Shown: positions 23,551 to 54,759 of the stretch, piece after piece
How positions within the stretch are numbered: position 1 is the first letter of the stretch
Layout of the letters: each line of letters begins with the position of its first letter
IMG/VR virus record: IMGVR_UViG_3300028864_000017
Origin: a virus
Taxonomy: Duplodnaviria > Caudoviricetes
Length of the DNA: 64,000 nucleotides
Direction: 5' to 3' (one strand)
Made by a program: the position numbers and the translations under genes
Notes under the pieces: generated by a model
Told to the model about the DNA's origin: nothing
Seen by the model: only the letters and a program-made list of their open reading frames with translations
Database searches by the model: none

Positions 23551-24945
23551 ATGATTGAGTTAAAAGGTAAATATACAGACGCTAAAATATTTATAGATGA
23601 AGTTGAAGAAGGAGTCTATACACAAATATACAATGTCATTAACTCAGAAACATCTAATGGGTTGAAAGTCAGACTAATGCCAGACGTGCATGTTGGCTCA
23701 GATATTTGTATTGGGTTTTCCATGGAATTGGGTAAGTATCTCAAACCAAGCACTATAGGTGTGGATATCGGCTGCGGGATGCTAAGTGCTAGATTTTCAG
23801 GTAGAACCACATTAGATTTAGAAAAAATTGATAATCTGATACGTGAAAATGTTCCTATGGGATTTGGTATGCACGAAGATATCAAATTTAAAAATATCCC
23901 TTTTGGTGATGTTCAAGTAATTGCAGATAACTTCATTGTAAAATTTAACGAAAAATTTGGGACATCTTATGATTCTCCATCATACAATGATAAATGGCTA
24001 ACATCTAAATTGAAAGATATTGGAATTGATGAAGGTAAATTTTACAAATCTATTGGTACATTAGGAGGTGGTAACCACTTTATTGAACTTGGTAAGTCAG
24101 ATAAGACTAATGATTATTGGGTAACAGTCCACTCTGGGTCAAGAAACTTTGGACTTAAAATTGCGGAATACTGGACTAAAGTTGCAAGAGGTAAAGTATT
24201 TGTTGCAACCAAAGAATATAACATGGAATTGGATGACATTACAATGAATACTTATCCTAAATCTGATATTGATAAAAAAATAAAAGAATTAAGGACAAGA
24301 TACAGTCTTAATATTGACAAAGAATATTTAGATGGTGAGTATCTTATTGGATATCTATTTGATATGATTTTTGCTCAACAATATGCTCTATGGAGTAGAA
24401 AAACAATGTTATCATTGATAAAAAAAGCATTGAATATCAAAAAGTTTGATGAAGAAATTCATTCAATACATAACTATGTTGATTTCAAAGATTTTATCAT
24501 AAGAAAAGGTGCAATCTCATCTTATGTTGGTGAAAAAATGATTATACCATTCAATATGAGAGATGGAATACTTATATGCGAAGGTAAATCAAATGAAGAT
24601 TGGAACAACTCAGCACCACATGGGTCTGGTCGTTTGATGTCAAGATCAAAAGCAAAAGAGTCAATTGATTTAAAAGATTTTCAGAAAGTAATGAAAGGTA
24701 TATATTCAACATCTGTATGTAAAAGTACAATTGATGAATCACCATTTGCTTACAAAAACTCTGATATGATTGAAAAAGCTATCGAGCCTACTGCATTAAT
24801 TCTTGATAAAATAAAACCAATCTTAAACATAAAAGATAAATCTGAAGGTACATCTTGGAAAGATAAGAAAGAGCAAAAAAAGAAAGATAAGCAACGTAAC
24901 AACGAAAGAAATGAAGTTTCTTATCAAAAGATGAAAAAATTCTAA
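23551..24945 (+). CDS. rtcB: RtcB RNA ligase
   Basis: MPDVHVG, GVDIGCG, GTLGGGNHFIE, VHSGSRN, IHNY, SAPHGSGR, DESPFAYK. Confidence 0.95.
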   Translation: MIELKGKYTDAKIFIDEVEEGVYTQIYNVINSETSNGLKVRLMPDVHVGSDICIGFSMELGKYLKPSTIGVDIGCGMLSARFSGRTTLDLEKIDNLIRENVPMGFGMHEDIKFKNIPFGDVQVIADNFIVKFNEKFGTSYDSPSYNDKWLTSKLKDIGIDEGKFYKSIGTLGGGNHFIELGKSDKTNDYWVTVHSGSRNFGLKIAEYWTKVARGKVFVATKEYNMELDDITMNTYPKSDIDKKIKELRTRYSLNIDKEYLDGEYLIGYLFDMIFAQQYALWSRKTMLSLIKKALNIKKFDEEIHSIHNYVDFKDFIIRKGAISSYVGEKMIIPFNMRDGILICEGKSNEDWNNSAPHGSGRLMSRSKAKESIDLKDFQKVMKGIYSTSVCKSTIDESPFAYKNSDMIEKAIEPTALILDKIKPILNIKDKSEGTSWKDKKEQKKKDKQRNNERNEVSYQKMKKF

Positions 24946-52106: not shown

Positions 52107-52179
52107 GGGATATAGGTCAAATGGTTAAGATGTCACCCCGTCACGGTGCACGGAGCGAGTTCGAATCTCGTATATCCCG
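52107..52179 (+). tRNA. tRNA-Asp(GTC) with C33
   Basis: gggatat/atatccc; loop CCGTCAC; TTCGAAT. Confidence 0.85.
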
Positions 52180-52202
52180 CTTATTATCAAAAAATTAAAA
52201 AT

Positions 52203-52448: not shown

Positions 52449-53273
52449 ATGGAAAGCATTAAAACTAAAATATTATCATTAAGAAAAGAAGGAAAAACAT
52501 ACAATGAAATATCAGAATTATTAAATTGTTCAAAAGGTACAATATCTTATCATTGTAAAAAATTATATAATAATATTGAATTAAATAAAAAAAACACAAA
52601 ATTATCAAATTTAAAAAAATTAAAAAATATACCAAATATAGATTTTGGTGATGAGATATCTGATGAGATTTTTAAAAAAGTTATTGAATATCGAATAAAT
52701 GGTAATACATATGAAGAAATAATAGAAAAAACTAAATTATCTTTAGATAAAATTAAAAAAATATGCAGATTAAATAATATCAATGATGGTAATTATAAAA
52801 AAAATAATTATTGTAAAATATATGAAAACGTTAATAATGATGACGTTATTGAAATGCAAAAATACTATGATGAATGTAAAAGTACAAGAAAAGTATCTAA
52901 AAAATTCAATATTGGTAGATATCAAATATCTAAAATTTTAATTATAAATAAAAAAGAAAAATTATCTAAAGAAGAGTATAAAATAAAAAGAAAAAATGAT
53001 ATTGTAAATAATGTTATTAGTTGGAGAAAAGATAAAAAAAGGAAACTTGTTGAATATAAAGGAGGAAAATGCGAAAGGTGTGGATATGATAAATGTATAG
53101 ATGTATTTGATTTTCATCATAAAGATCCTACTCAAAAAGATTTTGGAATAAGTGCAAAATCTTATTCATATGAAAGATTAAAAAAAGAAGTTGATAAATG
53201 TATGTTAGTGTGTAAAAATTGTCACACAGAAATACATTATGAAATAAAAAATAAAAATGGTTCTGGCGCATAA
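52449..53273 (+). CDS. HTH plus HNH endonuclease (homing-endonuclease-like) inside the tRNA array
   Basis: N-terminal HTH repeats; CERCGY ... FDFHHKDP ... KCMLVCKNCHTEIH. Confidence 0.88.
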   Translation: MESIKTKILSLRKEGKTYNEISELLNCSKGTISYHCKKLYNNIELNKKNTKLSNLKKLKNIPNIDFGDEISDEIFKKVIEYRINGNTYEEIIEKTKLSLDKIKKICRLNNINDGNYKKNNYCKIYENVNNDDVIEMQKYYDECKSTRKVSKKFNIGRYQISKILIINKKEKLSKEEYKIKRKNDIVNNVISWRKDKKRKLVEYKGGKCERCGYDKCIDVFDFHHKDPTQKDFGISAKSYSYERLKKEVDKCMLVCKNCHTEIHYEIKNKNGSGA

Positions 53274-53529: not shown

Positions 53530-53601
53530 TGCCGAAGCTTAGTGGAAAAGAGATTTCTCTCATAAGGAAATCCAAATGAGTTCGAACCTCATATTCGGTA
53601 C
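53530..53601 (+). tRNA. tRNA-CAT (Met or Ile2)
   Basis: tttct-CTCATAA-ggaaa; atgag-TTCGAAC-ctcat; acceptor register slightly irregular. Confidence 0.75.
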
Positions 53602-53667
53602 AGAGTTTATTATTATGACTAGTATCATACTAATAGTATGTTATGATTAATAAAAATAAACTAAAAT

Positions 53668-53741
53668 AGTCTTGTATATCAGTCGGTTAGATTGTCATCC
53701 TGATAAGATGGAGGTCGTGAGTTCAAGTCTCACCAGGACTA
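53668..53741 (+). tRNA. tRNA-Ile(GAT)
   Basis: agtcttg/caggact; tcatc-CTGATAA-gatgg; TTCAAGT. Confidence 0.9.
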
Positions 53742-53752
53742 CTAAATAACAT

Positions 53753-53829
53753 TGGTGAATATACCCTCTGCCTGATAAGTAGTAGAAAGGTTAATTGGTC
53801 ACATGTGGGTTCAATTCCCACTTCACCAA
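53753..53829 (+). tRNA. Non-canonical D-arm-less tRNA-Ile(GAT)-like RNA
   Basis: tggtgaa/ttcacca; only 7 nt before the anticodon arm ctgc-CTGATAA-gtag; 21-nt insert with AAGGTTAATTGGT; gtggg-TTCAATT-cccac. Confidence 0.75.
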
Positions 53830-53842
53830 CAATAAAAAACAC

Positions 53843-53921
53843 ACTGTCGTATCCCCACTGGCTTATATCCAGTCATTAACAAGGTAATTGGTGTATGAGG
53901 GTTCAAGTCCCTTCGGCAGTA
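53843..53921 (+). tRNA. Non-canonical D-arm-less tRNA-Ile(TAT)-like RNA
   Basis: actgtcg/cggcagt; 7 nt then actgg-CTTATAT-ccagt; 23-nt insert with AAGGTAATTGGT; gaggg-TTCAAGT-ccctt. Confidence 0.75.
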
Positions 53922-53934
53922 CAATAAACAACAA

Positions 53935-54059
53935 GGTAGTGTAACTCAAAAGCACAAAGGGGATAATTATGAAACTAGAATAAATAATTTGAAACGAGCG
54001 AAGGATAGAGTGCTGGGCCGATGTCTCAGAAGTTGATGGTTCGAGTCCATCTGCTACCA
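53935..54059 (+). tRNA. tRNA-like gene (GAT) with ~55-nt D-loop insertion
   Basis: ggtagtg/tgctacc; D stem actc/gagt; ctggg-CCGATGT-ctcag; gatgg-TTCGAGT-ccatc. Confidence 0.65.
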
Positions 54060-54067
54060 CAAAAATA

Positions 54068-54151
54068 TGTGATTAATATGACACAGGTAGTCATGTCAGT
54101 ATGTAAAACTGATCTCTTCGGAGGTTGTGGGTTCGAGCCCAACTAGTACCA
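54068..54151 (+). tRNA. Degenerate tRNA-Tyr(GTA)
   Basis: atgac/gtcat D stem, tcagt-ATGTAAA-actga, ctc-TTCG-gag, TTCGAG; acceptor stem poorly paired. Confidence 0.55.
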
Positions 54152-54219
54152 CAAAAAATATTTAATACAATTTATATTATTTATATAATTATCACTATTT
54201 ATATATAAATAAAAAAAAT

Positions 54220-54759
54220 ATGAATAAATTAGTCGAGAAATTTAAATCATCACAAGAAAAATTTGCAATATTTTTATCAGATTCATTATCTAGTATGACA
54301 ATGTTTTGGATAATTACAATATTAGTTATATTTCCATTATTTTTTAGTCAGCCATCAGGTTTAGTTGCATGGATGCAATATTTAGTATCAGTTTTCTTTC
54401 AAGGAGTAGCATTACCAGTTTTAGGATATATTGCTAAGATAAGTGGAAGTAGAACTGATGCAATAATATCAAAGATTGAAGAATTATCCGAAAAAATAGA
54501 AGCTATGACAGAGCATATAAATGTTGATGTTGATGACATAAAAACTCATGTAGTTGATATTGATATTGAATTAAAAGATGTAGATACTGATGTTAGTGAC
54601 ATAAAAAGTCATGTTGATGATATAGATATTGAGTTAAAGTATGCTGACACAGACGTTAATGAAATACAAAATCATGTTGATAATATACAAGAAGATTTAA
54701 AAAATGTAGACTTTGACATAAATAACATTCAAGATAATATAGAAAAAGAAAAAAAATAA
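54220..54759 (+). CDS. DUF1003-like membrane protein with 21-aa coiled-coil repeats
   Basis: 2 TM; repeats DVDTDVSDIKSHVDDIDIELK; TATATAAATA upstream. Confidence 0.65.
   Translation: MNKLVEKFKSSQEKFAIFLSDSLSSMTMFWIITILVIFPLFFSQPSGLVAWMQYLVSVFFQGVALPVLGYIAKISGSRTDAIISKIEELSEKIEAMTEHINVDVDDIKTHVVDIDIELKDVDTDVSDIKSHVDDIDIELKYADTDVNEIQNHVDNIQEDLKNVDFDINNIQDNIEKEKK

Follow-up and report, generated by a model that had tools for sequence, protein, structure and literature searches.

We know of D-loop introns in tRNA genes only from archaea and a few eukaryotes, where they come with bulge-helix-bulge (BHB) motifs. The closest published parallel to the gene described here is the tRNA introns of the Lak megaphages, which are presumably anticodon-loop introns, as the eukaryote settings of tRNAscan are taken to mean. 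These short introns were predicted with those settings and termed 'enigmatic', and insert-less alleles exist (Devoto et al. 2019, PMC6784885). Phage tRNAs are also known to carry altered anticodon loops, for which an escape from host anticodon nucleases has been proposed (van den Berg et al. 2023, PMC10264068). Our literature search turned up no account of a D-loop insertion in any phage or bacterial tRNA gene.

The element analyzed here is a 125-nt, tRNA-Ile-shaped gene (53935-54059, + strand) of a giant peat-soil phage, which is represented by an IMG/VR virus contig from peat (143 kb, ∼20% complete, 24% GC); it lies within the 64,000-nt stretch of DNA that we refer to as the window. With the Lak introns it shares a short unclassified tRNA insert, a very large AT-rich phage as its setting and a near-identical sequence wherever it is present, but it departs from the Lak type in having the insert in the D loop, and no allele free of the insert turned up. 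The archaeal and eukaryal non-canonical tRNA introns (BHB, EndA, RtcB) resemble it in having a D-loop segment of similar length and RtcB in the genome; however, the element has neither a BHB nor an EndA that we could find, belongs to a bacterial virus, and is not tracked by RtcB. The nuclease-insensitive phage tRNAs (PMC10264068) are likewise phage tRNA-type genes with an anticodon loop off consensus, but apart from that loop their shape is normal, and a D-loop insertion is absent from all of them.

The + strand between 51.5 and 55.9 kb carries ∼17 tRNA-type genes, the element among them; it lies 13 nt from the preceding tRNA gene and 9 nt from the next, in the local order canonical tRNA-Ile(GAT) (53668-53742), two D-arm-less 'rewired' Ile genes (GAT and TAT), the element and a third tRNA-Tyr. 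The 5′ strand of its acceptor stem, GGTAGTG (53935-53941), pairs at 7/7 positions with TGCTACC (54052-54058), which with the discriminator A forms the 3′ end of the gene (54052-54059), CCA not being encoded. After TA, the D-stem strand ACTC (53944-53947) pairs at 4/4 positions with GAGT (54008-54011) around a 60-nt D loop (53948-54007) made up of A14-A17, the insert and G18 G19 A U A21, the insert being ∼51 nt at D-loop position 17 (53952-54002, with edges ambiguous by 1-4 nt). A single G precedes the anticodon arm CTGGG CCGATGT CTCAG (54013-54029, anticodon GAT at 54020-54022), and AAGTT separates it from the T arm GATGG TTCGAGT CCATC (54035-54051). In a scripted check all 21 stem pairs were standard (G-U in 3/21), and the nucleotides of the L-shape are present (U8, A14, A15-U48, G18 G19, T54 T55 C56, A58, G53-C61 and A73). 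When searched alone the element matches RF00005 with 41.0 bits (E 6.4e-08, gathering score 29), aligned over the full 125 nt with only one gap, which spans 57 nt of the D loop, and its copy in the related phage genome G001 scores 39 bits; in whole-window runs both ARAGORN and Rfam missed it. These results bear out the initial annotation, which had described a tRNA-like gene with intact acceptor, D, anticodon and T stems. Compared with a canonical tRNA-Ile(GAU) (RF00005, for example that at 53668-53742), the four-arm cloverleaf, the GAU anticodon, A73, the tertiary nucleotides, the TTCGAGT T loop and the site in the array are the same, but the D loop has 60 nt, well outside the normal 7-11 nt, and C33, G37 and U38 replace U33, A37 and A38, so that both U33 and the A37 typical of tRNAs reading ANN codons are missing. 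The whole element is no more stable than its shuffles (fold z +1.1), and its 313-nt context folds at z -0.6. Of the long, structured D-loop insertion proposed at first reading, the length stands, at ∼51 rather than ∼55 extra nucleotides, whereas 'structured' found no support.

At 31% GC, the insert lies between the genome (24%) and the tRNA body (49%). Its flanks TAACTCAAA and GGATAGAGT jointly make up an ordinary D arm with the loop AAA(T)GGATA, as in many phage and bacterial tRNAs, TAACTCAAA(T)GGATAGAGT being a common canonical D arm among them; the extra bases therefore stand in for the single variable nucleotide at position 17. Within the insert AATTAT (53965-53970) is complementary to ATAATT (53984-53989), and the two could form a hairpin of six A-U pairs around a loop of 13 nt. 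The hexamers had been read as a stem of the insert's own, yet the insert alone reaches only -0.3 kcal/mol (z +0.9) and 168/200 shuffles fold just as well. Short-word BLAST against the genome and 3.3 Mb of other loci revealed no second copy of the insert, with AT-rich 9-14-mers as the only matches, so that nothing points to a repeat, to a mobile element or to a guide acting in antisense. A scan of the insert for promoters and terminators stayed at chance level, and the insert matched no Rfam family. As minor observations, GGGGATA in the insert (53959-53965) is complementary to TATCCCC in the rewired Ile(TAT) gene (53850-53856), a 7-nt match that is about what chance would give, and a mini-ORF, ATG AAA CTA GAA TAA (53969-53983), begins 6 nt behind AAGGGG. 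The mini-ORF has the look of a gene start in this phage and could be what is left of coding DNA that was inserted; its AAA codon reads AAT in G001. We rejected it as a gene because phage genes here are without SD sequences and the one variant is non-synonymous. An identity as YrlA or another Y RNA was likewise rejected, there being no Rfam match of this kind at the element.

The initial annotation had suggested that the insert could be a non-canonical intron, citing the RtcB encoded in the window, and this proposal finds no support in any known intron type. No BHB was found at the insert junctions, compared to a mean of 1.1 in 500 shuffles, and no EndA (PF01974) was found in the phage's own record (143 kb, ∼20% complete) or in G001 (330 kb, ∼46% complete). 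Group I and group II introns gave no Rfam match, 51 nt is too short for either, and there is no stable fold. Known intron types are thus excluded or unsupported for the insert. RtcB (23551-24945) lends the proposal little weight, as it is 29 kb from the element, among unknown genes and DnaK, and is also present in the relatives G002, G003 and G008, all of which are without the element. The flanking sequences would nevertheless speak for some form of excision, as taking out the 51 nt in silico (53952-54002) leaves 74 nt with a textbook D arm, the canonical D arm of many tRNAs (ACTCAAA / GGATAGAGT), that ARAGORN calls as tRNA-Ile(gat) at its default threshold. If the insert were an intervening sequence excised by a protein, and the ends sealed for example by the phage RtcB, the product would be a 74-nt tRNA-Ile(GAU) whose C33/G37 loop might resist host anticodon nucleases. 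The small unexplained introns reported in megaphage tRNAs (PMC6784885) would be in keeping with this, as would the extra anticodon-loop bases in tRNA-like genes of related phages. However, besides lacking BHB, EndA and a ribozyme fold, the insert is conserved in its interior like the exons, which a passive protein-spliced intron would not need, and no allele without it has turned up in the IMG/VR, JGI metagenome, GTDB or peat-run sequences; we regard such splicing as unlikely. Its most specific form, a true D-loop intron cut by a protein endonuclease of a yet-unknown kind and sealed by the phage RtcB, appears improbable.

Across all searches the element was found in only two lineages, whose copies are 123/125 identical. 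The IMG/VR records that have it are L003, L004 (the 330-kb G001; L186 is the same contig) and L005, all with a single sequence version. The homolog patterns covered the anticodon arm, the 5′ anchor, the 3′ part of the insert and the T arm plus acceptor, as well as the D-arm flanks with a gap of either 31-61 nt or 0-8 nt, and in IMG/VR, the JGI metagenome contigs and GTDB they returned only chance or unrelated matches beyond those three records. None of these collections, nor four peat DNA runs, contained an insert-less allele; contigs from the peat runs over 53600-54300 carried element copies identical to the window only, with no joint across the insert. The downstream 179-aa ORF led to no related loci, and a covariance model (R1) found no second member in the tRNA regions of G001, G002, G003, G004 and G008. 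Scanning for an acceptor plus T arm gave no other class-I tRNA with a D-loop insert in this genome, or in ∼1 Mb comprising nearly all of G001, G002, G003 and G008 and the tRNA region of G004, and BLAST of the 3′ exon against GenBank phages produced generic T-arm matches only. When relatives were ranked by RtcB identity, G002 (91%) proved to have Ile(GAT), canonical Ile(TAT) and Tyr at the syntenic site, and the element is absent there. The element is a rare, lineage-specific oddity. It can also be observed that the block of three odd Ile genes (53743-54068 in the window), the two rewired ones and the element, corresponds to one canonical tRNA-Ile(TAT) in this close relative (L174:4760-4845), and that unrelated sequence comes after the rewired Ile(TAT) gene in other contigs from peat.

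The window and G001 copies differ at 2/125 positions, 53974 (A/T) and 54036 (A in the window, G in G001). The former, the one known variant of the insert, falls in the loop of the weak hairpin and the latter turns a T-stem A-U pair into G-U, so pairing is kept. For the spacers of this alignment the figure is 16 of 99 aligned positions (about 16-17%), with 46 gap columns and with indels of 3 nt and 29 nt, and the flanking coding DNA is ∼84% identical. With 1/51 positions changed the insert behaves like the tRNA bodies (5/313, p 0.6) and differs from the spacers (Fisher p 0.012). Together this amounts to evidence of moderate strength that selection maintains the element in full, with its insert, as judged from small counts in one pairwise comparison within a region that is a recombination mosaic and in which the canonical tRNA-Ile next door differs at 18/75 positions. 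Random decay of the stems in homologs, which would have spoken against the tRNA-like gene described initially, is not seen in this one comparison.

If the element were instead a spare copy that is dead or decaying, its insert and its altered loop would be lesions in a redundant gene and the two lineages would be alike only through recent exchange of the block. The very narrow distribution in two lineages and the absence from the syntenic site of G002 would fit such a history, as would an insert that is unstructured and unique, the redundancy of Ile(GAU) at the locus, the mosaic nature of the region and the decay of the adjacent tRNA-Tyr in the window. This third tRNA-Tyr(GTA) (54069-54153) belongs to class II with the variable arm CTC/GAG TTCG and is recovered by ARAGORN only at a relaxed threshold; its G001 copy is intact, while the window copy has three broken pairs (through T2, through A70 and, in the T stem, through C>A), hence relaxed selection becomes visible quickly at this locus. 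The element itself, however, shows 2/125 differences where spacers of the same block show ∼17% and the 3-nt and 29-nt indels, and since its insert is as little changed (1/51) as the tRNA bodies, plain decay seems unlikely. A pseudogene is further disfavored because all 21 stem pairs are kept, with no mismatch, although 3/7 loop positions are off the Ile consensus, and the changes cluster in the anticodon loop, unlike in neutral decay. We therefore think it rather unlikely that the gene is dead or dying.

The anticodon loop is indeed atypical, as had been noted from the sequence alone: it reads CCGATGT with C33 (54019) and G37 (54023) in place of CTGATAA, and U38 (54024) deviates as well. C32 C33 G34 A35 U36 G37 U38 thus differs at three positions from the CUGAUAA of the two upstream Ile(GAT) genes, the canonical and the rewired one, both of which have normal loops. 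In a nearest-neighbor model of the isolated anticodon arm a C32-G37 pair forms with p 0.74 and would shrink the loop to 4 nt. C33 recurs in this phage group, in the tRNA-Asp of the window (52107-52180) and in tRNA-Cys and tRNA-Glu of G008 (L177), and the tRNA-Asp genes of G002 and G001 (L174:4212-4287 and L181:8120-8195) differ in nothing but C33 versus T33. Because C33 occurs here in otherwise ordinary tRNAs, it is by itself neither a mark of decay nor an argument against decoding in this phage group, as far as these sequences indicate.

The element could accordingly be a working Ile tRNA that decodes AUU and AUC with the insert attached, as a member of a set of Ile tRNAs so varied in structure that one host nuclease could not eliminate them all. 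Four Ile-type genes of differing architectures in a row, the many Ile codons used at 24% GC, the intact tertiary-pair positions and the tolerance of C33 in this phage group would all suit this role, and positions 16 and 17 are known to tolerate bulky dye labels on translating tRNAs. However, no tolerated label comes near the size of a 51-nt appendage at the elbow, and the predicted C32-G37 pair would close the loop. In addition, A37 and A38 are normally needed by bacterial IleRS and for ANN decoding, whereas the element has G37 and U38; this need was reportedly described by Nureki et al. in 1994. Efficient decoding is disfavored because of G37 and U38 while two normal GAU genes adjoin, and we consider a decoding role quite unlikely.

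We tentatively favor a maintained tRNA mimic, to which we assign a probability of roughly one in three, in which the insert is retained as a single-stranded binding surface and the RNA, an inefficient decoder, has a part in the phage's conflict with host enzymes directed at tRNA. On this model the element would be a real, selectively maintained gene derived from tRNA-Ile(GAU) in the + strand tRNA array, probably co-transcribed with the array tRNAs and trimmed at both ends like them. D-loop position 17 faces the solvent in known tRNA structures, and therefore the pairs of the L-shape (U8-A14, A15-U48 and G18/G19 with the T loop) can still form. Since nothing marks the insert as an intron of a known type, the RNA most likely retains it, which would give a 125-nt tRNA look-alike. 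This RNA would be a poor decoder, with C33 for U33, G37 where ANN-reading tRNAs have A37 and possibly a C32-G37 pair, and we infer that it may act as a mimic towards host enzymes that target tRNAs, the single-stranded insert serving as a surface for sequence-specific binding. The tRNA fold, the constraint on the sequence and the absent intron hallmarks are consistent with such a mimic, as are the redundancy with the canonical and rewired Ile(GAT) genes upstream, the 4-nt loop predicted for the isolated arm and the proposed evasion of host anticodon nucleases by phage tRNAs with altered loops (PMC10264068). Against it stand the restriction to two lineages compared as a single pair in a recombining region, which gives covariation no material to work on, and the search of the 143-kb record, which yielded neither a target or partner of the insert nor a sequence complementary to it. 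Among 24 public runs, no RNA run containing the locus was listed. Moreover, we know of no tRNA-shaped decoy in phages, and the sequence analysis spoke neither for nor against the two other ideas of the initial annotation, a tRNA decoy for anticodon nucleases and a scaffold for a small RNA.

If the RNA is made and the insert kept, D-loop position 17 of a tRNA body can accommodate a long single-stranded extension, and the element would represent a third architecture among the unusual Ile tRNA genes of this phage; acting as a mimic, the element would constitute a novel type of RNA counter-defense. If, on the other hand, the insert is spliced out, protein-based tRNA splicing would occur outside the anticodon loop in bacteria or their viruses, and a true D-loop intron would be both the first D-loop tRNA intron and the first case of protein-dependent tRNA splicing in the bacterial world.

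Other unusual genes were observed in this phage group. In the window an ORF of 274 aa of the HTH and HNH type (52449-53273) interrupts the tRNA array, and its 3′ end overlaps the start of a long-armed tRNA-Asp at ∼53258. G002 has a 197-nt tRNA-like gene (L175:1949-2145, + strand) whose acceptor stem, D arm and T arm are perfect, but in which ∼130 nt with several hairpins replace the anticodon arm; it belongs to no Rfam family and folds at z -1.5. Further tRNA-like genes are present in the relatives G001 and G003 (L183:3695-3783, L178:3568-3660 and L183:3915-4014, all on the - strand), among which are genes with 27-30 nt and a GCCAAAAAAGC core in place of the 7-nt anticodon loop and another with a 29-nt variable arm.
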